64,000 nucleotides of DNA from Escherichia coli (GCF_003334305.1 NZ_QOWS01000020.1); one strand, 5' to 3'; positions 14,502 to 47,578 are shown, counted from the first letter of the stretch. The notes: a model not told the origin generated them from the sequence alone. Translations and numbers: made by a program.

Positions 14502-14653
14502 TGTTAATCCTTAATAACCTTTTTATTCTTTGCCACGGGTTCCGTGGCGGGAGATTATGCCGCGTGAACATGAAGATTATTCCTGGGAATACTCGGAAAT
14601 TTGTAAGTAATATTTAACTGCTCAATACATCTAACCTTTCAGGAGTTTTCGGT

Positions 14654-16987
14654 TTGGCCAACTCATCCTCACGATATTCCGTTCTGACTGCCGCCCATTG
14701 GGGGCCCATGCTGGTTGAAACCGACGGCGAAACCGTGTTTAGCTCGCATGGCGCGTTAGCCACAGGAATGGAAAACTCCTTGCAGAGCGCGGTTCGCGAC
14801 CAGGTTCACAGCAATACACGGGTACGATTTCCAATGGTGCGCAAAGGCTTTCTTGCGTCACCGGAAAATCCGCAAGGCATTCGTGGGCAGGATGAATTTG
14901 TTCGCGTGAGTTGGGATGAGGCGCTGGATCTTATTCACCAACAACATAAACGCATTCGTGAGGCTTATGGTCCGGCATCGATTTTTGCTGGTTCCTACGG
15001 CTGGCGTTCAAACGGCGTGCTGCATAAGGCCTCGACATTATTACAACGCTATATGGCGCTGGCAGGCGGTTATACCGGGCATCTGGGGGATTATTCGACC
15101 GGCGCGGCACAGGCGATCATGCCGTATGTCGTGGGTGGTAGCGAAGTTTATCAACAGCAAACCAGTTGGCCGCTGGTGCTGGAACATAGCGATGTCGTGG
15201 TGTTGTGGAGTGCTAACCCACTCAATACGCTGAAAATTGCGTGGAATGCATCTGATGAGCAGGGGCTTTCTTACTTTTCCGCACTGCGTGACAGCGGGAA
15301 AAAGCTGATCTGTATTGATCCAATGCGATCGGAAACCGTCGATTTCTTTGGCGATAAAATGGAGTGGGTGGCACCGCACATGGGCACCGATGTTGCGCTG
15401 ATGCTGGGGATCGCCCATACGCTGGTGGAAAATGGTTGGCACGACGAAGCGTTTCTGACGCGTTGCACCACAGGTTATGCCGTCTTCGCCTCTTATTTGC
15501 TGGGCGAGAGTGACGGAATAGCGAAAAACGCCGAATGGGCGGCAGAGATTTGTGGGGTTAACGCAGCGAAAATCCGCGAGCTGGCGGCTCTTTTCCACCA
15601 AAACACGACCATGCTGATGGCTGGCTGGGGAATGCAGCGCCAACAGTTTGGTGAGCAAAAACACTGGATGATCGTCACGCTGGCGGCAATGTTGGGGCAA
15701 ATCGGCACACCCGGCGGCGGTTTTGGTCTTTCTTATCATTTTGCCAATGGTGGTAACCCCACGCGGCGTTCTGCGGTGCTCTCTTCCATGCAGGGCAGCT
15801 TGCCGGGTGGCTGCGATGCGGTGGATAAAATCCCTGTTGCCCGCATTGTTGAAGCACTGGAAAACCCTGGTGGCGCATATCAACACAACGGTATGAACCG
15901 ACATTTCCCGGATATTCGTTTTATCTGGTGGGCGGGCGGTGCCAACTTTACTCATCATCAGGATACCAATCGTCTGATCCGTGCCTGGCAAAAACCGGAG
16001 CTGGTGGTGATCTCTGAATGCTTCTGGACGGCGGCGGCGAAACACGCGGATATCGTTCTGCCTGCGACTACCTCTTTTGAGCGTAATGATCTCACCATGA
16101 CCGGTGATTACAGTAATCAGCATCTGGTGCCGATGAAGCAAGTGGTGCCGCCACGCTATGAAGCGCGTAATGATTTTGATGTTTTTGCCGAGTTGAGTGA
16201 ACGTTGGGAGAAGGGCGGCTATGCGCGGTTTACGGAAGGAAAAAGTCAGCTGCAATGGCTGGAAACGTTTTATAACGTTGCCCGGCAGCGCGGGGCAAGC
16301 CAGCAGGTTGAATTGCCGCCATTTGCTGAGTTCTGGCAAGCCAACCAGTTAATTGAGATGCCGGAAAACCCGGACAGCGAGCGGTTTATTCGCTTCGCTG
16401 ATTTTTGCCGCGATCCGCTGGCGCATCCGTTAAAAACCGCCAGCGGCAAGATTGAAATCTTCTCACAGCGTATTGCCGATTACGGTTACCCGGATTGCCC
16501 TGGGCATCCAATGTGGCTGGAGCCGGACGAATGGCAGGGCAATGCCGAACCAGAACAGTTGCAGGTACTTTCTGCCCATCCGGCGCACCGCCTGCACAGC
16601 CAGCTGAATTACAGTTCTCTGCGCGAATTGTACGCGGTAGCAAACCGTGAGCCTGTCACCATTCATCCTGACGATGCTCAGGCGCGCGGCATAACCGAAG
16701 GGGATATGGTGCGGGTGTGGAACTCCCGTGGGCAGATCCTTGCCGGAGCGGTCATTAGCGAGGGAATTAAACCTGGCGTGATTTGCATTCACGAAGGGGC
16801 ATGGCCGGATCTGGATTTAACCGCTGACGGTATTTGTAAAAACGGCGCAGTGAACGTGCTGACCAAAGATCTCCCCAGCTCGCGGCTGGGGAATGGCTGT
16901 GCGGGTAATACGGCGCTGGCATGGCTGGAAAAATACAACGGTCCGGAACTGACACTTACAGCGTTTGAACCACCGGCCAGCTCATAA
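14654..16987 (+). CDS. bisC: biotin sulfoxide reductase, molybdopterin oxidoreductase (777 aa)
   Basis: [25 protein letters not shown]...; the track ORF begins with a TTG codon at 14654. Confidence 0.93.
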
Positions 16988-17396
16988 TCCAGGTGGGTAG
17001 TTGGGTTTCATCCTGCCATGCGCAATCGACAATGTGAAAACCCTGCGCACGGTAAAAATCTATCGCCGGTTGATTTTTTTGATAAACCTCCAGCATCAGA
17101 TGGGGATAGCGCTGCTGCACATACTGCATCAGCGCCTTACCAATACCGCGTCTGACGGCCTTCGGTGCGACAAACATTGCTGCCAGAAATCGGCCTTCCA
17201 TAATGCTGACAAAACCGAGAAGCTTACCGTCCTCTTCCCAGACCCAGTTTTGCGCGTTGGCAAGATAGGCATCCCGCACCAGCGGAATGCAGTCACGCCA
17301 GTAATTCGCTTTTATAAAGGGATGCCCCCAGGTTGTACTTTCCAGCCACAGTTCGAGGATCGCGGGGAGTTCTGAACGTTGCGCTTCCCGAATCAT
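16956..17396 (-). CDS. yiaC: GNAT-family N-acetyltransferase YiaC (146 aa)
   Basis: [17 protein letters not shown]... acetyltransferase fold; 3-prime end overlaps the bisC 3-prime end by 32 bp (convergent). Confidence 0.88.
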
Positions 17397-20349: not shown

Positions 20350-20572
20350 CCTTTTTACTGCTTTTTGTAACGCTAAAGTCTCTTTTCAAACTTGCATTTT
20401 TGTAAATTTGTGCTTCATGCACACTCTTTCCCCACACTTTTTCGCTTTGCTGTGGTCTACTTATTCGCGCGTGTAGATTTTACTTATCTGACTACCTCCG
20501 CACTTTTCCCCTGCCGGGCCTGAAAAGCCGCTAAGCAGGGTGTTATCACCTGTTTGTCCAGGGTTTGTTTGC

Positions 20573-22264
20573 ATGAGATACATCAAATCGATTACACAGC
20601 AGAAGCTGAGCTTTTTGCTTGCAATCTATATTGGCCTTTTTATGAATGGCGCGGTTTTTTATCGCCGCTTCGGCAGCTATGCGCACGATTTTACCGTCTG
20701 GAAAGGCGTTTCTGCCGTTGTTGAACTGGCCGCCACCGTACTGGTGACCTTCTTTTTACTACGTCTTCTATCGCTGTTTGGCCGCCGCAGCTGGCGTATT
20801 CTGGCGTCGCTGGTGGTGCTCTTTTCCGCAGGTGCCAGCTATTACATGACCTTCCTTAATGTGGTCATTGGTTATGGCATCATCGCTTCCGTCATGACCA
20901 CCGATATCGACCTGTCAAAAGAAGTTGTTGGTCTGAACTTTATTCTCTGGTTAATCGCCGTTAGTGCATTGCCTCTTATCCTTATCTGGAATAACCGCTG
21001 TCGCTACACCTTGCTCCGACAACTGCGAACCCCAGGGCAGCGTATTCGCAGCCTGGCGGTCGTCGTACTGGCGGGTATTATGGTTTGGGCACCGATTCGT
21101 TTGCTGGATATCCAGCAGAAGAAAGTGGAGAGGGCGACCGGCGTTGATTTGCCGAGTTATGGCGGTGTCGTAGCGAACTCTTATCTGCCATCAAACTGGC
21201 TTTCTGCGTTGGGGCTGTATGCCTGGGCGCGGGTCGATGAATCTTCCGATAATAATTCATTGCTTAATCCGGCGAAGAAATTCACTTATCAGGCACCGCA
21301 AAACGTTGATGACACTTATGTCGTGTTTATCATCGGTGAAACCACGCGTTGGGACCATATGGGCATTTTCGGCTATGAGCGTAATACCACGCCGAAACTG
21401 GCCCAGGAGAAAAATCTGGCGGCGTTCCGTGGTTACTCCTGTGATACCGCAACCAAACTCTCACTGCGTTGCATGTTTGTACGTCAGGGGGGCGCGGAAG
21501 ATAATCCGCAGCGCACATTAAAAGAACAGAACATTTTCGCGGTTCTGAAGCAGTTAGGATTCAGTTCTGACCTCTACGCTATGCAGAGCGAAATGTGGTT
21601 CTACAGCAACACGATGGCGGACAACATTGCTTATCGTGAGCAGATTGGTGCGGAGCCACGTAATCGTGGCAAGCCGGTAGATGATATGTTGCTGGTAGAC
21701 GAAATGCAGCAATCGCTAGGGCGCAACCCGGATGGTAAGCATCTGATCATTCTGCATACCAAAGGTTCGCATTTTAACTACACCCAGCGTTATCCGCGTA
21801 GCTTCGCGCAGTGGAAGCCGGAATGTATTGGTGTTGATAGCGGCTGTACCAAAGCGCAGATGATCAACTCCTATGACAACTCGGTGACCTATGTGGATCA
21901 CTTTATCTCCAGCGTGATTGATCAGGTTCGCGATAAGAAAGCGATTGTGTTCTACGCAGCTGACCACGGTGAGTCAATTAATGAACGCGAGCACCTGCAC
22001 GGCACGCCGCGTGAACTGGCACCGCCGGAGCAGTTCCGCGTACCGATGATGGTCTGGATGTCAGATAAATATCTGGAAAATCCGGCCAATGCTCAGGCAT
22101 TTGCGCAGCTGAAAAAAGAAGCCGACATGAAAGTGCCACGCCGTCATGTAGAGCTGTACGACACCATCATGGGTTGTCTTGGCTATACTTCACCGGATGG
22201 TGGAATTAACGAAAACAACAACTGGTGTCACATCCCGCAGACAAAAGTGGCAGCGGCTAACTAA
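20573..22264 (+). CDS. eptB: Kdo2-lipid A phosphoethanolamine transferase EptB (563 aa)
   Basis: Track ORF trimmed to [21 protein letters not shown]...; N-terminal TM domain plus sulfatase-like domain. Confidence 0.92.
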
Positions 22265-22355
22265 GCGGCCTGCTGACTTTCTCGCCGATCAAAAGGCATT
22301 TTGCTATTAAGGGATTGACGAGGGCGTATCTGCGCAGTAAGATGCGCCCCGCATT

Positions 22356-22432
<77 letters not shown>

Positions 22433-22438
22433 AATTCG

Positions 22439-22468
22439 AAAAGCCTGCTCAACGAGCAGGCTTTTTTG
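22439..22468 (+). terminator. rho-independent terminator of proK
   Basis: AAGCCTGCTCAACGAGCAGGCTT hairpin followed by TTTTT. Confidence 0.85.
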
Positions 22469-22519
22469 CATTTGTAGCTCATGAGGATGAGAACCTCCGG
22501 GGGCGGGGAGGTTCGACTC

Positions 22520-22615
22520 GACGTAGGCCTGATAAGACGCGTCAGCGTCGCATCAGGCAACGGCACCGCACTTATTGTCGGATGCGGCGTGAACGCCTTA
22601 TTCGACCTACACGCC
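22520..22615. repeat. REP / BIME-type palindromic units
   Basis: GCCTGATAAGACGCG...CGCATCAGGC and CGGATGCGGCGTGAACGCCTTAT units typical of E. coli REP elements. Confidence 0.7.
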
Positions 22616-23176
22616 ACACATTTCCCTGCCAAATTTGCGCCCCATATCTCACTATCCATTAACGGATTTGTGACAGAAACCATTGTCTTTTTTTATATTT
22701 GCTTAAATCTTTTTTTTCGTAACTTATGGCTGGCGCTGGCATTTTCCGCTGTGCGTTTTAGCGTTCATGGTATTAATCGCTCAGATATCCACCTTTTCCT
22801 CAGATTTTTTTCACTAAATGCATAAAACTTAATCACCAAATGTTGCTAAATATTAAGCTGATTGTTCTGGTCATGTTGGAGTAGCACAAATTTCTCTGCT
22901 GCAAATAGCTGTTTGAAGTTTTTTTAATCTTTGTTTGTGGATTCTCACCGTTGGTGTAAATCCCGGTTGGCTGTATTGACGTTTTCACATTCTGTTGACA
23001 GATTGTAGGTCACGAGGGGCATTTTATGGAGGATCCGCACTGTTACACTGATGTTAATTAGTACGGCATCCCCACCTCATAACGTTGACCCGACCGGGCA
23101 AAAAACAAAAAAGGTCAGGCAGCGACAACCCACTGCAAAGGGTTAAAACAACAAACATCACAATTGGAGCAGAATA

Positions 23177-24784
23177 ATGCGTATTTCCTTGAAAAAGTCA
23201 GGGATGCTGAAGCTTGGTCTCAGCCTGGTGGCTATGACCGTCGCAGCAAGTGTTCAGGCTAAAACTCTGGTTTATTGCTCAGAAGGATCTCCGGAAGGGT
23301 TTAACCCGCAGCTGTTTACCTCCGGTACCACCTATGACGCCTCTTCCGTACCGCTTTATAACCGCCTGGTTGAATTTAAAATCGGCACCACCGAAGTGAT
23401 TCCGGGCCTCGCTGAAAAGTGGGAAGTCAGCGAAGACGGTAAAACCTATACCTTCCATCTGCGTAAAGGTGTGAAGTGGCACGACAATAAAGAATTCAAA
23501 CCGACGCGTGAACTGAACGCCGATGACGTGGTGTTCTCGTTCGATCGTCAGAAAAACGCGCAAAACCCGTACCATAAAGTTTCTGGCGGCAGCTACGAAT
23601 ACTTCGAAGGCATGGGCTTGCCGGAGCTGATCAGCGAAGTGAAAAAGGTGGACGACAACACAGTTCAGTTTGTGCTGACTCGCCCGGAAGCGCCGTTCCT
23701 CGCTGACCTGGCAATGGACTTCGCCTCTATTCTGTCAAAAGAATATGCTGATGCGATGATGAAAGCCGGTACACCGGAAAAACTGGACCTCAACCCAATC
23801 GGCACCGGTCCGTTCCAGTTACAGCAGTATCAAAAAGATTCCCGTATCCGCTACAAAGCGTTTGATGGCTACTGGGGCACCAAACCGCAGATCGATACGC
23901 TGGTCTTCTCTATTACCCCTGACGCTTCCGTGCGTTACGCGAAATTGCAGAAGAATGAATGCCAGGTGATGCCGTACCCGAACCCGGCAGATATCGCTCG
24001 CATGAAGCAGGATAAATCCATCAATCTGATGGAAATGCCGGGGCTGAACGTCGGCTATCTTTCATATAACGTGCAGAAAAAACCACTCGATGACGTAAAA
24101 GTTCGCCAGGCTCTGACCTACGCGGTGAACAAAGACGCGATCATCAAAGCGGTTTATCAGGGCGCGGGTGTATCAGCGAAAAACCTGATCCCGCCAACCA
24201 TGTGGGGCTATAACGACGACGTTCAGGACTACACCTACGATCCTGAAAAAGCGAAAGCCTTGCTGAAAGAAGCGGGTCTGGAAAAAGGTTTCTCCATCGA
24301 CCTGTGGGCGATGCCGGTACAACGTCCGTATAACCCGAACGCTCGCCGCATGGCGGAGATGATTCAGGCAGACTGGGCGAAAGTCGGCGTGCAGGCCAAA
24401 ATTGTCACCTACGAATGGGGTGAGTACCTCAAGCGTGCGAAAGATGGCGAGCACCAGACGGTAATGATGGGCTGGACTGGCGATAACGGGGATCCGGATA
24501 ACTTCTTCGCCACCCTGTTCAGCTGCGCCGCCTCTGAACAAGGCTCCAACTACTCAAAATGGTGCTACAAACCGTTTGAAGATCTGATTCAACCGGCGCG
24601 TGCTACCGACGACCATAACAAACGCGTTGAACTGTACAAACAAGCACAGGTGGTGATGCACGATCAGGCTCCGGCACTGATCATCGCTCACTCCACCGTG
24701 TTTGAACCGGTACGTAAAGAAGTTAAAGGCTATGTGGTTGATCCATTAGGCAAACATCACTTCGAAAACGTCTCTATCGAATAA
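23177..24784 (+). CDS. dppA: dipeptide ABC transporter periplasmic binding protein (535 aa)
   Basis: MRISLKKSGMLKLGLSLVAMTVAASVQAKTLVYCSEGSPEGFNPQ... Confidence 0.96.
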   Translation: MRISLKKSGMLKLGLSLVAMTVAASVQAKTLVYCSEGSPEGFNPQLFTSGTTYDASSVPLYNRLVEFKIGTTEVIPGLAEKWEVSEDGKTYTFHLRKGVKWHDNKEFKPTRELNADDVVFSFDRQKNAQNPYHKVSGGSYEYFEGMGLPELISEVKKVDDNTVQFVLTRPEAPFLADLAMDFASILSKEYADAMMKAGTPEKLDLNPIGTGPFQLQQYQKDSRIRYKAFDGYWGTKPQIDTLVFSITPDASVRYAKLQKNECQVMPYPNPADIARMKQDKSINLMEMPGLNVGYLSYNVQKKPLDDVKVRQALTYAVNKDAIIKAVYQGAGVSAKNLIPPTMWGYNDDVQDYTYDPEKAKALLKEAGLEKGFSIDLWAMPVQRPYNPNARRMAEMIQADWAKVGVQAKIVTYEWGEYLKRAKDGEHQTVMMGWTGDNGDPDNFFATLFSCAASEQGSNYSKWCYKPFEDLIQPARATDDHNKRVELYKQAQVVMHDQAPALIIAHSTVFEPVRKEVKGYVVDPLGKHHFENVSIE

Positions 24785-24934
24785 TTAAAAGCCATACCCG
24801 GTGGCGCTGTGCCTCTGCGTGCAGCGCCATCCGGCAGCAATACTTCATTCTCTGTCCGACAAGGGCGGGAATTGATTTGTGAGCAATACAGACACGCAGT
24901 TCCAGGCTGCGGGTCATTATAGAGAATCCGGGTT

Positions 24935-25954
24935 ATGTTGCAGTTTATTCTCCGACGTTTGGGACTCGTCATCCCCACGTTTATCGGTATTACCCTTCTC
25001 ACATTTGCCTTTGTCCACATGATCCCGGGCGATCCGGTGATGATCATGGCGGGCGAACGTGGGATCTCCCCTGAGCGTCACGCGCAGCTGCTGGCTGAAC
25101 TCGGCTTAGATAAACCGATGTGGCAGCAGTATCTCCATTACATTTGGGGCGTAATGCACGGCGATCTAGGCATTTCAATGAAAAGCCGAATTCCAGTATG
25201 GGAAGAGTTCGTGCCGCGCTTTCAGGCCACGCTGGAACTTGGCGTCTGCGCGATGATTTTTGCTACGGCAGTCGGTATTCCGGTTGGTGTGCTGGCTGCG
25301 GTTAAACGCGGTTCCATTTTCGATCACACTGCAGTTGGCCTGGCGCTGACCGGCTACTCGATGCCGATCTTCTGGTGGGGCATGATGCTGATCATGCTGG
25401 TTTCGGTGCACTGGAACCTGACGCCCGTCTCCGGTCGCGTGAGCGATATGGTGTTCCTCGATGACTCCAATCCGTTAACCGGTTTTATGCTAATCGACAC
25501 CGCCATCTGGGGTGAAGACGGCAACTTTATCGATGCCGTTGCCCATATGATCTTACCGGCCATTGTGCTGGGTACTATTCCGCTGGCGGTCATTGTACGT
25601 ATGACACGCTCCTCGATGCTGGAAGTGCTGGGTGAAGATTACATCCGCACCGCGCGCGCCAAAGGGTTGACCCGCATGCGGGTGATTATCGTCCATGCGC
25701 TGCGTAACGCGATGCTGCCGGTAGTGACCGTTATCGGCCTGCAGGTGGGAACATTGCTGGCGGGGGCGATTCTGACCGAAACCATCTTCTCGTGGCCCGG
25801 TCTGGGGCGCTGGTTGATTGACGCGCTGCAACGCCGCGACTATCCGGTAGTGCAGGGCGGCGTATTGCTGGTGGCGACGATGATTATCCTCGTCAACCTG
25901 CTGGTCGATCTGCTGTACGGCGTGGTGAACCCGCGTATTCGTCATAAGAAGTAA
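24935..25954 (+). CDS. dppB: dipeptide ABC transporter permease (339 aa)
   Basis: MLQFILRRLGLVIPTFIGITLLTF...; ABC permease. Confidence 0.95.
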   Translation: MLQFILRRLGLVIPTFIGITLLTFAFVHMIPGDPVMIMAGERGISPERHAQLLAELGLDKPMWQQYLHYIWGVMHGDLGISMKSRIPVWEEFVPRFQATLELGVCAMIFATAVGIPVGVLAAVKRGSIFDHTAVGLALTGYSMPIFWWGMMLIMLVSVHWNLTPVSGRVSDMVFLDDSNPLTGFMLIDTAIWGEDGNFIDAVAHMILPAIVLGTIPLAVIVRMTRSSMLEVLGEDYIRTARAKGLTRMRVIIVHALRNAMLPVVTVIGLQVGTLLAGAILTETIFSWPGLGRWLIDALQRRDYPVVQGGVLLVATMIILVNLLVDLLYGVVNPRIRHKK

Positions 25955-25963
25955 GGGGACATC

Positions 25964-26866
25964 ATGTCACAGGTTACTGAAAATAAAGTGATTAGCGCAC
26001 CGGTGCCGATGACCCCGTTACAGGAGTTCTGGCACTATTTTAAACGCAACAAAGGCGCGGTCGTCGGGCTGGTTTACGTCGTCATCGTGCTGTTCATCGC
26101 GATCTTTGCCAACTGGATTGCACCCTATAACCCGGCGGAACAGTTCCGCGATGCACTGCTCGCCCCGCCAGCCTGGCAGGAAGGCGGCAGCATGGCGCAC
26201 TTGCTGGGCACCGATGACGTAGGCCGTGATGTGCTGTCGCGCCTGATGTACGGTGCGCGCCTGTCGCTGCTGGTTGGCTGTCTGGTAGTTGTGTTATCGC
26301 TGATTATGGGCGTTATTCTCGGCCTGATCGCCGGTTACTTTGGCGGCCTGGTCGATAACATCATTATGCGCGTGGTCGATATCATGCTGGCGCTGCCAAG
26401 TCTGCTGCTGGCGCTGGTGCTGGTGGCAATTTTCGGCCCGTCGATTGGTAACGCCGCGCTGGCACTGACCTTCGTTGCCTTGCCGCACTATGTGCGCTTA
26501 ACCCGCGCCGCCGTGCTGGTGGAAGTTAACCGCGATTACGTCACCGCGTCTCGCGTGGCGGGTGCCGGGGCGATGCGTCAGATGTTTATTAACATCTTCC
26601 CGAACTGCCTTGCGCCGCTGATTGTTCAGGCGTCGCTCGGTTTCTCTAACGCCATTCTCGATATGGCTGCTCTTGGTTTCCTCGGCATGGGGGCACAGCC
26701 GCCAACGCCGGAGTGGGGCACCATGCTCTCCGACGTGTTGCAGTTCGCGCAAAGCGCCTGGTGGGTCGTGACCTTCCCGGGTCTGGCGATCCTGCTGACG
26801 GTGCTGGCATTTAACCTGATGGGTGACGGTCTGCGTGACGCGCTCGATCCCAAACTGAAGCAGTAA
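25964..26866 (+). CDS. dppC: dipeptide ABC transporter permease (300 aa)
   Basis: ABC permease directly downstream of dppB. Confidence 0.95.
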
Positions 26867-27860: not shown

Positions 27861-28861
27861 GTACGCAAGAGGCCACCTCGCAACAACCGCTGTTGCAGGC
27901 GATTGACCTGAAAAAACATTACCCGGTGAAGAAAGGGATGTTTGCGCCGGAACGTCTGGTGAAGGCGCTGGACGGCGTTTCGTTTAACCTTGAACGTGGC
28001 AAAACGCTGGCGGTAGTGGGCGAATCTGGCTGCGGTAAATCGACCCTCGGTCGGTTGCTGACGATGATCGAAACGCCCACCGGCGGTGAGCTGTATTACC
28101 AGGGGCAGGATCTGCTTAAGCACGATCCGCAGGCGCAGAAGCTGCGTCGGCAGAAAATCCAGATCGTCTTCCAGAATCCCTACGGTTCGCTGAATCCGCG
28201 TAAAAAAGTTGGGCAAATTCTCGAAGAGCCGCTGCTTATTAACACCAGCTTAAGCAAAGAACAGCGTCGGGAAAAAGCCCTGTCGATGATGGCGAAAGTC
28301 GGCCTGAAAACCGAGCATTACGACCGCTATCCGCACATGTTTTCCGGCGGACAACGTCAGCGTATCGCTATTGCCCGTGGTCTGATGCTCGACCCGGACG
28401 TGGTGATTGCCGATGAACCGGTTTCTGCGCTGGACGTCTCGGTGCGCGCGCAGGTGCTCAACCTGATGATGGATTTGCAGCAGGAACTGGGGCTTTCTTA
28501 TGTCTTTATCTCGCACGACCTGTCGGTTGTGGAGCACATTGCCGATGAAGTGATGGTGATGTACTTGGGCCGCTGCGTGGAGAAGGGGACGAAGGACCAA
28601 ATCTTCAATAACCCGCGTCATCCTTACACTCAGGCGCTGCTCTCCGCGACGCCGCGCCTGAACCCGGACGATCGCCGCGAGCGCATCAAGCTCACCGGTG
28701 AACTGCCAAGCCCGCTGAATCCTCCGCCGGGTTGCGCCTTCAACGCCCGCTGTCGTCGACGCTTCGGCCCCTGCACCCAGTTGCAGCCAGCACTGAAAGA
28801 TTACGGCGGTCAACTGGTGGCCTGCTTTGCCGTTGATCAGGATGAAAATCCGCAGCGGTAA
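27857..28861 (+). CDS. dppF: dipeptide ABC transporter ATP-binding protein (334 aa)
   Basis: Walker [10 protein letters not shown], signature FSGGQRQR; 4-bp overlap with dppD. Confidence 0.95.
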
Positions 28862-28865
28862 TGTT

Positions 28866-28895
28866 CAAAACCGGAGCCTTGTGCTCCGGTTTACT
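28866..28895. terminator. bidirectional terminator between convergent dppF and yhjV
   Basis: AAACCGGAGC-CTTGT-GCTCCGGTTT hairpin flanked by A/T runs; overlaps the yhjV stop codon. Confidence 0.7.
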
Positions 28896-30162
28896 CAATC
28901 AGCTTCAACAGTGGCGACAAGCATAGCAAAATGCCGTACAGCAGAATCAGCCAGGCTTTAAATCCGCGAAGTTTTTCCAGTTGTGCGACTTTATAGATCA
29001 GGAAAAACGGAATGAGGCACGACACAATGCCATATAACGGGCTTCCCAACTGAAAGAACACCAGCACCGATACACGAAACGAAACCCAAATCGTCAACGT
29101 AATGACGATAAAAGCGCAGATCGCCAGAGTCAGCACGCGTGAGTTAATTTTCTTGGTATCAATAATACGGCTTAACAGATTGAGAATAATGCCTTTAATG
29201 GCCTCGTGGAAACCGAGATAAATGCCAAAGAATGCGGTCAGTACGGCAAAGATATTCAGTACCGTAGAGGTGATATGAATGATATGCCCAGGGATCACCT
29301 GCGCGGCCAGTGCCAGTGCCGAGATATTTTGTTCAAAGGCAGAAACGGCTTCTTCGTGGCTAATTGAGAAGGTAAACGAAAAGGCAAAAAACAGTATCAC
29401 CGCGATGAGCGTGACATAACTAATTCGGTGGGTACGCAGCGCGAGCCGGGTTGCCAGTACTTTATCCGCTTCCCGTTTACGATAGGCAATATTCATTGGG
29501 TTAAGTACCTGAATAAATACCGCAGAAAAGAAGCAAAAGGGAATGGTAAGCAGGACATCGTGGAAAAAGACGGAGGCTTGCGGGAAGGCGGTTATATTGG
29601 CGAAATTCCAGTGCGGGATCATCGCAAAACCGAACACGACAATAATCCCTACTTTGACCACCACCATTGGCCCAGAAATCTTAAACAGTAATCGTTCACC
29701 ACCAGACGCAATCGCCACCAGTACGGCGAAAATAGCGACTTTATAAAGTAGAGATTGTGAAAGATCGGCATCGGTTAAACCGAAGGTTTTCAGGTACGAG
29801 GCGCTGTCGAAAACCACGGAGAGAGAGTAGATAAAAATCCCGTGGATAATCATCAAAAAGTAGATAACCCCGAGGAAAATTCCCCAGTTCTTCCCCAGGT
29901 AATGACTGATAATATCGGTGTAGTCATTACAGGAATCGCTTTCAGAAAGGGTTTTTAAATAAATGTCCTGCACTACCCAAGTGGCAGGATAAGCAATGAT
30001 CGCTGCGGTAATAAATACCCAAATTCCCTTCAAGCCAATTTGTACTGGCATCAGCACGGTTCCGGCACCAATCGCCATGCCTATGCATAATAAAACCCAG
30101 CCGAAGTCGTAGCGTGTAAACGGCAATTTCTGATCGTGTTTCGGTAGTGTGTTGTGCTGCAT
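28891..30162 (-). CDS. yhjV: amino-acid transporter-like inner membrane protein YhjV (423 aa)
   Basis: Track ORF trimmed to [34 protein letters not shown]...; polytopic membrane transporter. Confidence 0.88.
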
Positions 30163-30520
30163 AAAGTCCTGTCCAGAAAGAAGTCGGCCTCGCAAAAATG
30201 AATAAACCCAGATTCTCTTGCGCAACAGGTGGAGAAGTCGAATACGCAGTATGTAAAAAATGAGGCAACAGATTCACTGGGGAGGTCGCGAGGAGGCGCA
30301 ATTCTACAAAATTGCGCATTTCACTACCAGTCTGGAGTCAGCCCGGATATGAACTGCAACTATTGCAAATTAAGAAATTAAGCTGGAAGGCATCACGCAA
30401 TGAGGAAGATTGCCGGGTGCTGACAGTAAAAAGCAATCGTAAAATCAGCGGCAAGCCGGAAGGGTTCCGGTGAGGCGCAATGTTGCGGGGGCTTTATCCC
30501 TGGTGGCATTGGTTGCTGGA

Positions 30521-30584
30521 GAGAGAAAACCCCCGCACGTTGCAGGTATGCACCTGACAACATAACGGGGGCTAATCTTGAACC
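30521..30584 (-). ncRNA. rdlD: Rdl antisense RNA (antitoxin), copy 1
   Basis: Minus-strand sequence GGUUCAAGAUUAGCCCCCGUUAUGUUGUCAGGUGCAUACCUGCAACGUGCGGGGGUUUUCUCUC ends in a GC hairpin plus U-run and matches the Rdl family as I recall it; ends approximate. Confidence 0.6.
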
Positions 30585-30637
30585 TAAACAACTCAAGAAT
30601 AGCCGCGAAACGTTGTCATTACAACACAGGCGGCTAT

Positions 30638-31003: not shown

Positions 31004-31067
31004 GAGAGAAAACCCCCGCACGTTGCAGGTATGCACCTGACAACATAACGGGGGCTAATCTTGAACC
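31004..31067 (-). ncRNA. Rdl antisense RNA, copy 2
   Basis: Identical to copy 1 over this segment. Confidence 0.6.
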
Positions 31068-31120
31068 TAAACAACTCAAGAATAGCCGCGAAACGTTGTC
31101 ATTACAACACAGGCGGCTAT

Positions 31121-35222: not shown

Positions 35223-35975
35223 ATGGCCGTACTGGGATTGCAGGGGGTGCGGGGAGGCGTGGGGACAACAACCATCACCGCCGCATTAGCCTGGTCATTA
35301 CAAATGTTGGGAGAAAATGTTCTGGTGGTCGATGCCTGCCCGGACAACTTGTTGCGCCTGTCATTTAATGTTGATTTTACCCACCGTCAGGGCTGGGCCA
35401 GAGCGATGCTGGATGGCCAGGACTGGCGTGACGCTGGGTTGCGCTACACCTCGCAGCTCGATTTGCTGCCTTTTGGTCAGTTATCCATTGAAGAACAAGA
35501 AAATCCACAGCACTGGCAAACCCGGCTGAGCGATATTTGCTCCGGCTTACAGCAACTAAAAGCCAGCGGGCGTTACCAGTGGATTTTAATCGACTTACCG
35601 CGTGATGCCTCGCAGATAACCCACCAGCTGCTGAGTTTGTGCGATCACTCGCTGGCAATCGTCAATGTGGATGCCAACTGCCATATCCGACTGCATCAGC
35701 AAGCGCTGCCGGATGGCGCACATATTTTGATTAATGACTTCCGTATTGGCAGTCAGGTTCAGGACGATATTTACCAGCTTTGGTTGCAAAGCCAGCGCCG
35801 ATTACTGCCGATGCTCATTCATCGTGATGAAGCGATGGCTGAATGCCTGGCGGCTAAGCAACCAGTAGGTGAATATCGCAGTGATGCGCTGGCGGCTGAA
35901 GAGATACTGACGCTGGCGAACTGGTGCCTGTTGAACTACTCCGGGCTGAAAACGCCAGTCGGGAGTGCATCATGA
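35223..35975 (+). CDS. bcsQ: cellulose biosynthesis protein BcsQ (250 aa, ParA/MinD-like ATPase), uninterrupted
   Basis: MAVLGLQGVRGGVGTTTITAALAWSLQ...; codon 6 is TTG (Leu); the frame is open for the full length. Confidence 0.92.
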   Translation: MAVLGLQGVRGGVGTTTITAALAWSLQMLGENVLVVDACPDNLLRLSFNVDFTHRQGWARAMLDGQDWRDAGLRYTSQLDLLPFGQLSIEEQENPQHWQTRLSDICSGLQQLKASGRYQWILIDLPRDASQITHQLLSLCDHSLAIVNVDANCHIRLHQQALPDGAHILINDFRIGSQVQDDIYQLWLQSQRRLLPMLIHRDEAMAECLAAKQPVGEYRSDALAAEEILTLANWCLLNYSGLKTPVGSAS

Positions 35976-45508: not shown

Positions 45509-45589
45509 GTTTTCAGATAGCGCCTCTCTTAATGCCGCTGCGATCGGGTATACTCGGGCGGCAATCTGGGATTTCCGGGGGGAGACAAT

Positions 45590-47578
45590 TTGCGCGTAAG
45601 TCGCTCGTTAACAATCAAGCAGATGGCAATGGTGGCAGCCGTTGTCCTGGTGTTCGTTTTTATTTTTTGCACCGTTTTGCTGTTCCATCTGGTCCAGCAG
45701 AATCGCTATAACACGGCTACGCAACTGGAAAGCATTGCTCGCTCTGTCCGCGAACCCTTATCTTCAGCTATTTTGAAAGGCGATATTCCCGAAGCGGAAG
45801 CTATTCTTGCCAGCATTAAACCGGCAGGCGTGGTCAGCCGTGCCGATGTAGTGCTGCCTAACCAGTTCCAGGCGCTGCGTAAAAGTTTTATTCCAGAGCG
45901 CCCGGTGCCGGTAATGGTTACTCGCCTGTTTGAGCTACCGGTTCAAATCTCGCTGGGCGTTTACTCGCTCGAACGTCCGGCAAACCCGCAGCCAATTGCC
46001 TATCTGGTACTACAGGCGGATTCCTTCCGTATGTATAAGTTCGTGATGAGCACCCTCTCAACGTTAGTGACCATTTACTTACTTTTGTCGCTTATCCTGA
46101 CCGTCGCCATCAGCTGGTGCATTAACCGCCTGATTTTGCATCCGTTACGCAATATTGCTCGCGAACTTAACGCCATCCCAGCCCAGGAGCTTGTTGGTCA
46201 CCAACTGGCATTACCGCGTCTGCATCAGGACGATGAAATCGGTATGTTGGTGCGCAGTTACAACCTCAACCAGCAATTGCTGCAGCGCCATTATGAAGAA
46301 CAGAACGAAAATGCGATGCGCTTCCCGGTGTCGGATTTGCCGAACAAAGCCTTGCTGATGGAGATGCTGGAGCAGGTTGTCGCGCGTAAACAAACCACCG
46401 CGCTGATGATCATCACCTGTGAAACCCTGCGTGATACTGCGGGCGTGCTGAAAGAGGCGCAACGAGAAATTCTGCTGCTGACGCTGGTGGAAAAACTCAA
46501 ATCGGTACTGTCGCCACGTATGATCCTCGCGCAGATTAGCGGTTATGACTTTGCTGTCATTGCCAACGGTGTACAGGAACCGTGGCACGCAATCACCTTA
46601 GGTCAGCAAGTGCTCACTATCATGAGCGAGCGCCTGCCGATTGAACGTATTCAACTCCGTCCGCACTGTAGCATTGGCGTGGCGATGTTCTACGGCGATC
46701 TCACCGCCGAACAGCTTTACAGTCGCGCTATTTCTGCGGCATTTACCGCTCGCCATAAAGGCAAGAATCAGATTCAGTTCTTTGATCCGCAGCAGATGGA
46801 AGCCGCCCAGAAGCGGTTGACGGAAGAGAGTGATATCCTTAATGCACTGGAAAATCATCAGTTTGCTATTTGGTTACAGCCACAGGTCGAGATGACCAGC
46901 GGAAAACTGGTCAGTGCGGAAGTGTTACTGCGTATCCAGCAACCGGATGGCAGTTGGGACCTGCCGGATGGCTTAATCGATCGCATTGAGTGCTGTGGGC
47001 TGATGGTTACCGTCGGTCACTGGGTGCTGGAAGAGTCCTGTCGATTGCTTGCAGCCTGGCAAGAGCGCGGCATTATGCTGCCCTTGTCGGTAAACCTCTC
47101 TGCGCTGCAACTGATGCACCCAAATATGGTGGCGGATATGCTGGAACTGTTAACCCGCTATCGCATTCAGCCGGGAACACTGATTCTGGAAGTGACAGAA
47201 AGCCGACGTATTGACGACCCTCATGCTGCGGTGGCAATCCTCCGTCCGCTGCGCAATGCCGGAGTTCGGGTGGCGCTGGATGATTTCGGCATGGGCTACG
47301 CAGGGCTGCGTCAGCTGCAGCATATGAAATCGTTGCCAATCGACGTACTGAAAATCGACAAAATGTTTGTTGCAGGCTTGCCGGAAGATAGCAGCATGAT
47401 TGCTGCAATTATCATGCTGGCGCAGAGCCTGAACTTACAAATGATTGCCGAAGGCGTGGAGACTGAAGCACAACGCGACTGGCTGGCAAAAGCGGGCGTT
47501 GGTATTGCCCAGGGCTTCCTTTTTGCTCGCCCACTCCCTATTGAAATCTTCGAAGAGAGTTACCTGGAAGAAAAGTAG
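45590..47578 (+). CDS. pdeK: c-di-GMP phosphodiesterase PdeK (membrane HAMP-GGDEF-like-EAL protein)
   Basis: Track ORF begins at a TTG (662 aa); in-frame ATG codons at 45623 and 45629 are alternative starts; C-terminal EAL domain ends ...[18 protein letters not shown]. Confidence 0.85.

Follow-up and report, generated by a model that had tools for sequence, protein, structure and literature searches.

Initiation at codons other than AUG is a familiar feature of Escherichia coli, where UUG is the start codon of about 3% of the genes, and 81 UUG starts had been annotated before 2016. In reporters, the canonical non-AUG codons (GUG and UUG) give 10-100% of AUG. Confirmed non-canonical cases are infC and pcnB, which both start with AUU and in which the sub-optimal start codon is kept by selection to set expression; infC is subject to autoregulation by IF3. 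The two genes treated here, bisC and pdeK (also named yhjK or hmsP), differ from these in that UUG is a canonical start codon, and the likeness to infC and pcnB concerns the conservation of the codon only.

The closest described systems are the same two genes in K-12 MG1655 (U00096.3/NC_000913.3), bisC (b3551, NP_418007.3; 2334 nt) and pdeK/yhjK (b3529, NP_417986.4; 1989 nt), each annotated with a TTG start. Ribosome profiling of tetracycline-arrested initiating ribosomes (TetRP) has been carried out in K-12 under one growth condition (Nakahigashi 2016, PMC4909307); the method compares the depth at the start annotated in 2006 with the depth at in-frame NUG codons within 60 nt (PMC4909307). For bisC, Table S2 of that study gives a new TTG start at -54 nt with depths of 78.6, 80.1 and 91.1, and for yhjK a new TTG start at -39 nt with depths of 37.6, 53.1 and 21.1, while the 2006 ATG has depths of 0, 0 and 0 in both genes (PMC4909307). 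According to Table S3, both start changes are the same as those made independently in the 2014 reannotation U00096.3, with a Diff_start of -54 for bisC (PMC4909307). The K-12 models of 2006 had comprised 759 aa for bisC and 649 aa for yhjK (PMC4909307). In the same assay, other genes, for example ftsH, ybeZ and yliA, likewise showed a UUG led by a Shine-Dalgarno (SD) sequence upstream of a formerly preferred ATG (PMC4909307). Several of these other UUG sites were confirmed with lacZ fusions, whereas the Table S2 rows for bisC and yhjK are flagged '6. nt', which stands for 'not tested' in the manual inspection (PMC4909307). The N'-peptide column of Table S2 is empty for both genes (PMC4909307) and our literature searches found no N-terminal peptide for either of them; a profiling preprint based on Onc112 mentions neither bisC nor yhjK/pdeK.

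The window, as we call the whole stretch of 64,000 nucleotides that was analysed, is part of an Escherichia coli chromosome. An 801-nt probe around position 14654 matched 5421 of 5426 complete E. coli genomes; it falls on bisC, which is flanked by yiaD. The corresponding probe around 45590 matched 5425 genomes at hmsP, adjoining bcsC. RefSeq places the starts of bisC and hmsP exactly on the TTGs at 14654 and 45590 in strains that match the window without any difference at the probes. The window shares with K-12 the synteny (yiaD-bisC-yiaC and bcsC-pdeK-dctA), the lengths of both genes and their TTG starts, and it differs by strain-level SNPs only, for example by His32 in BisC in place of the Arg32 of K-12. 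The start region of pdeK is identical to that of K-12, the strain used for TetRP, and the start region of bisC differs by a single base in the spacer. Among the 35 K-12 coding sequences mapped to the window, only bisC and pdeK have non-ATG starts; given the frequency of UUG starts in E. coli genes, two of them in about 35 genes are unremarkable. The TTG starts of bisC and pdeK are thus correct, ordinary and already known from the reference annotation and from published ribosome profiling. The features of the bisC locus are:

14615-14617, plus strand: in-frame TAA stop codon upstream of bisC, with no ATG, GTG or TTG between it and 14654
14641-14645, plus strand: SD sequence AGGAG of bisC, 8-nt spacer to the TTG, duplex of -7.2 kcal/mol
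14654-14656, plus strand: TTG initiation codon of bisC, identified by RefSeq and K-12 annotation, TetRP reads and orthologues
14654-16987, plus strand: bisC coding sequence of 777 codons, biotin/methionine-S-sulfoxide reductase of the DMSO reductase family
14708-14710, plus strand: ATG codon 19 of bisC, the start annotated in 2006, an unused internal methionine codon with zero TetRP reads

The position of bisC between yiaD and yiaC corresponds to RefSeq WP_000013916.1, and a protein cluster with 99% identity to its product (P0001) carries the Pfam domains PF18364, PF00384 and PF01568 (Molybdopterin_N, Molybdopterin and Molydop_binding), as expected of a cytoplasmic molybdopterin guanine dinucleotide S/N-oxide reductase. 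At its 3′ end the gene overlaps the convergent yiaC (16956-17396, minus strand) by 32 nt (16956-16987). A convergent overlap of this type, 23-38 nt long, was present in all fetched orthologous loci (for example at 2703 versus 2734 in locus L085).

The second locus follows the gene order bcsC-hmsP-dctA, with pdeK downstream of bcsC. Its product is 100% identical to a cluster (P0121) with PF17154, PF00990 and PF00563, i.e. a membrane-anchored c-di-GMP phosphodiesterase of the architecture GAPES3-HAMP-GGDEF-EAL. Here, the features are:

45577-45584, plus strand: SD sequence GGGGGGAG of pdeK, with core GGAG at 45581-45584, 5-nt spacer, duplex of -9.9 kcal/mol
45590-45592, plus strand: TTG initiation codon of pdeK, identified by annotated start, TetRP reads and conservation
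45590-47578, plus strand: pdeK (yhjK/hmsP) coding sequence of 662 codons, opened by the TTG
45623-45625, plus strand: ATG codon 12 of pdeK, an internal methionine codon without SD sequence, duplex of -1.3 kcal/mol
45629-45631, plus strand: ATG codon 14 of pdeK, the 2006 start (649-aa model), unused, with zero TetRP reads and a duplex of -2.9 kcal/mol
45650-45652, plus strand: GTG codon 21 of pdeK, the second TetRP candidate (at +21 relative to the 2006 start); other species do not conserve a start codon here

A preliminary description of this DNA had proposed a TTG start for bisC and, as a possibility, for pdeK, the latter with in-frame ATGs at 45623 and 45629. All of this stands, including both reading frames: the TTG at 14654-14656 is the first ATG, GTG or TTG after the in-frame TAA and opens a frame of 777 aa, and the start of pdeK can be moved from possible to affirmed, as annotation, profiling, SD sequence and conservation agree on the TTG. 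What does not stand is the statement that bisC lacks an in-frame ATG close to its start, since the ATG at 14708-14710 is in frame 54 nt downstream. The check that had been proposed, ribosome profiling with initiation inhibitors, is already in the literature and places initiating ribosomes on both TTGs (PMC4909307).

Reading a start from the longest open reading frame is weak evidence when taken alone. By itself this rule does not establish a start, and the longest frames of two other genes in the window overshoot their annotated ATGs:

28891-30225, minus strand: longest open reading frame of yhjV, beginning with TTG, 444 aa; the annotated ATG start of K-12 gives 423 aa
35924-38590, plus strand: longest open reading frame of bcsA, beginning with GTG, 888 aa; the annotated ATG start of K-12 gives 872 aa

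The evidence for the two TTG starts consists of annotation, published initiation-arrested ribosome profiling, SD placement and cross-species conservation. Taken together, it lets us state with high confidence that the TTG at 14654-14656 is the true start of bisC (777 aa) and the TTG at 45590-45592 that of pdeK (662 aa). For each candidate codon, the duplex energy of the preceding 20 nt with the 3′ end of 16S rRNA was calculated, and both TTGs have an upstream SD pairing, with -7.2 kcal/mol for bisC and -9.9 kcal/mol for pdeK, the latter to be compared with -1.3 and -2.9 kcal/mol at the pdeK ATGs at 45623 and 45629. In both genes, conservation of the coding type begins at the TTG and not upstream of it.

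When the RNA from -40 to +40 around each TTG was folded, the z-scores were +1.1 and +0.25; because these values are unremarkable, the idea of a structured regulatory element at the two starts was dropped. Scanning the two start regions for promoters and terminators yielded a single weak promoter-like match, which lies upstream of bisC, and no match for pdeK.

The conservation of the pdeK start was followed in one genome per species at 80 orthologous loci, ranging from Escherichia to Buttiauxella and Cedecea with 65-97% identity. Codon 1 was absent from all six search peptides with which the loci were collected, and a single residue among 662 is too little to determine how hits are ranked; ascertainment is therefore no concern for the count of TTG codons. 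The start codon is TTG in all 80 other species of the Enterobacteriaceae, and GGAG is found 5-8 nt upstream of it in 80 of the 81 sequences. Farther than about 12 nt upstream of the start the consensus falls to about 60% or less. Downstream of the TTG, residues 2-12 of PdeK are invariant, while codons 2-11 are each represented by two to four synonymous codons in the 81 sequences and synonymous change has reached saturation. Invariant residues combined with synonymous variation are the signature of translation.

Among the alternatives, a dual initiation fares best, in which a minor truncated PdeK isoform is made from the GTG at 45650 besides the product of the TTG. Such an isoform would be compatible with our main explanation and is suggested by the TetRP data themselves, which contain for yhjK a second candidate site '+21', corresponding to this GTG, codon 21 of pdeK (PMC4909307). 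A UGGUGG stretch upstream of it can pair with the anti-SD sequence at -6.6 kcal/mol; however, 12 nt separate the end of this pairing from the GTG, a poor spacing, and the product would begin in the middle of a transmembrane helix. Moreover, the start is not conserved: among 80 distinct sequences codon 21 encodes Val in 53, Leu in 17 (CTG in 9) and Ala in 10. The site is also one without manual inspection in the TetRP study (PMC4909307). We consider the isoform improbable, and the GTG start is probably minor or spurious.

Less probable still is an initiation of pdeK mainly from the ATG at 45629, yielding the 649-aa protein, or from that at 45623, which would leave the membrane anchor without its charged N-terminal segment. 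Both ATGs lie close to the TTG (33 and 39 nt downstream), and in 23 of 120 database clusters the protein is modelled from one of them. However, the 2006 ATG has no TetRP depth (PMC4909307), neither ATG is led by an SD sequence according to the duplex energies given above, and codon 14 is ACG (Thr) in Phytobacter, so that the old start, Met14, is replaced there. That residues 2-11 are invariant in 81 sequences although each of their codons varies synonymously makes sense only if this segment is translated. We regard these ATG starts as very improbable and retain the TTG at 45590 as the start of pdeK.

The 13 residues that the TTG start adds to PdeK supply a positively charged segment in front of the first transmembrane helix, inside which the 649-aa model begins. 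By inspection, R2, R5 and K10 precede a hydrophobic run of 23 residues (12-34). The positive-inside rule is an established principle of membrane-protein orientation, and the charges at R2, R5 and K10 would fit an N-in orientation of a signal anchor.

For bisC, 120 protein clusters were compared. In these, the motif (V/I)LTAAHWGP is essentially invariant, whereas residues 2-9 vary in sequence and in length and residue 19 is M, I, V or L. A leucine at the start is written in models that are extended upstream or that translate the codon literally (JGI), as in Kosakonia, Enterobacter, Pluralibacter, Pseudocitrobacter and Citrobacter farmeri. At the DNA level, 11 orthologues from other genera or lineages were added to the window sequence, giving 12 sequences. 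The start is TTG in 10 of the 11 orthologues, namely in Salmonella, Kosakonia, Enterobacter asburiae, two lineages of Citrobacter amalonaticus, Pseudocitrobacter, Pluralibacter, Superficieibacter, Phytobacter and one metagenomic contig; the remaining one, an Enterobacter-like genome, has GTG. In the metagenomic sequence an in-frame ATG directly follows the TTG, and this ATG was chosen by the gene caller. AGGAG, or AGGTG in Pluralibacter, precedes the start codon by 4-8 nt in all 12 sequences.

Solved structures give a further argument for the upstream start of bisC. Residues 7-18 of BisC align with the conserved N-terminal strand of TorZ-type and DMSO reductase structures, residues 9-10 with residues 7-8 of the mature DMSO reductase chains 1dms and 1eu1, and these mature chains start within two residues of the BisC TTG start. 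The N-terminus of BisC that results from the TTG is thus collinear with the mature end of its periplasmic relatives. It has no twin-arginine motif or Tat signal peptide, as only nine residues stand in front of the conserved strand. The 18 residues gained with the TTG start include this strand, the first of the DMSO reductase fold, and a start at Met19 would delete it.

A translation of bisC from the ATG at 14708 according to the 759-aa model of 2006, with the TTG-led extension as an untranslated leader, is the least credible of the alternatives and can hardly be upheld: ATG is the commonest start codon, a few automatic models (P0105 and P0057) still begin there as the 2006 annotation did, and for the GGGGG run in front of this ATG a pairing with the anti-SD sequence of -8.4 kcal/mol is computed, but none of the three TetRP samples shows any depth at the ATG (PMC4909307), the G-run ends just 3 nt before it and simply represents codons for His-Trp-Gly-Pro, the VLTAAHWGP sequence upstream of it is invariant in about 115 of 120 clusters and aligns to a structural strand, and at codon 19 Citrobacter and Salmonella, among others, have Ile, Val or Leu. 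The G-run probably explains why this ATG was chosen earlier as the start of bisC, a gene which we take to be translated from the TTG at 14654.

The outdated start may have left a trace in the literature. The 18 nt before the ATG at 14708 (14690-14707) read GCCGCCCATTGGGGGCCC and fit the description of a sequence in a published study, which, through the outdated start annotation, probably used bisC coding sequence (window 14690-14707).

Start errors for bisC and pdeK in public databases are widespread in automatic models. Of the PdeK clusters, 23 of 120 take Met12 or Met14 as their first residue; for BisC, about 10 clusters reach too far upstream, beyond the TTG, and two to three are truncated.

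Both genes employ a conventional, SD-led initiation at UUG. The SD sequence, AGGAG with an 8-nt spacer in bisC and GGGGGGAG with a 5-nt spacer in pdeK, positions the 30S subunit on the UUG, with which the initiator fMet-tRNA pairs. BisC and PdeK would accordingly begin with methionine and not with leucine, and the downstream ATGs (codon 19 of bisC, codons 12 and 14 of pdeK) are ordinary internal methionines. By analogy with the reporters mentioned above, initiation at bisC and pdeK is expected to be weaker than from AUG. For both proteins, the value of these assignments lies mainly in the annotation, with 777 aa for BisC and 662 aa for PdeK as compared with 759 and 649 aa in the 2006 K-12 record.

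Only one point seems mildly new: across the family, pdeK has kept TTG without exception and bisC has kept a non-ATG start. Codon changes in the first 1500 nt of pdeK were counted on a neighbour-joining tree of the 81 Enterobacteriaceae sequences. The 21 internal codons that always encode leucine have undergone between 2 and 33 changes on this tree, and codon 1 none. At 53 four-fold degenerate sites there were on average 10.6 transversion events, with just one site lacking any. A transversion at the first base of the TTG would turn it into ATG or GTG, and this base shows zero transversions. From the lack of any change at codon 1 it follows that this TTG is something other than a usual leucine codon, and it seems to be kept specifically as TTG. 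No change to ATG or GTG is seen in any of the 81 sequences, and each of the 12 bisC sequences begins with TTG or GTG.

Within E. coli, variants with ATG were searched for using the 61-nt haplotype of the window only. For pdeK, the 61-mer with TTG is found exactly in 5368 of 5425 genomes and its ATG version in none; for bisC, whose haplotype is exact in 691 genomes, no ATG version of this haplotype was present among the E. coli genomes searched.

Whether the weak TTG of pdeK and bisC is actively maintained by selection, rather than merely tolerated, seems to us evenly balanced on these comparisons. A weak initiation would be a plausible reason for the retention of the codon, although of modest interest. 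If selection does act in this way, the strength of the start codon would be a conserved, family-wide limiter of expression for a c-di-GMP phosphodiesterase beside the cellulose operon and for a molybdoenzyme. With its deep conservation, the TTG offers a modest case in which selection on the strength of a start codon can be put to the test.

Some further observations concern the surroundings of the two genes. The window was mapped with K-12 as the annotation reference and not with strain E2865 (NZ_AP018808.1, O157-like), because the latter is not collinear with it. In E2865, the fimbrial operon lpfABCDE (20568-26013) lies between yhjX and eptB, and a copy of IS621 (28493-29473) follows proK, where the collinearity with the window ends, i.e. 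at an IS621-associated rearrangement; both operon and IS621 copy are absent from the window. Two identical matches to the Rfam family of the rdlD antitoxin, with 91 bits each, are located at 30524-30589 and 31007-31072 on the minus strand, 483 nt apart. They imply a putative duplicated ldr/rdl type I toxin-antitoxin locus in the window, whereas only ldrD/rdlD is listed for this region in K-12. Finally, bcsQ (35223-35975, plus strand) is an intact ATG-started reading frame of 250 codons, in contrast to K-12 MG1655, in which bcsQ (b3534) is annotated as a pseudogene. Since bcsQ is intact, the strain from which the window derives probably has, unlike K-12, a functional cellulose-synthesis operon.
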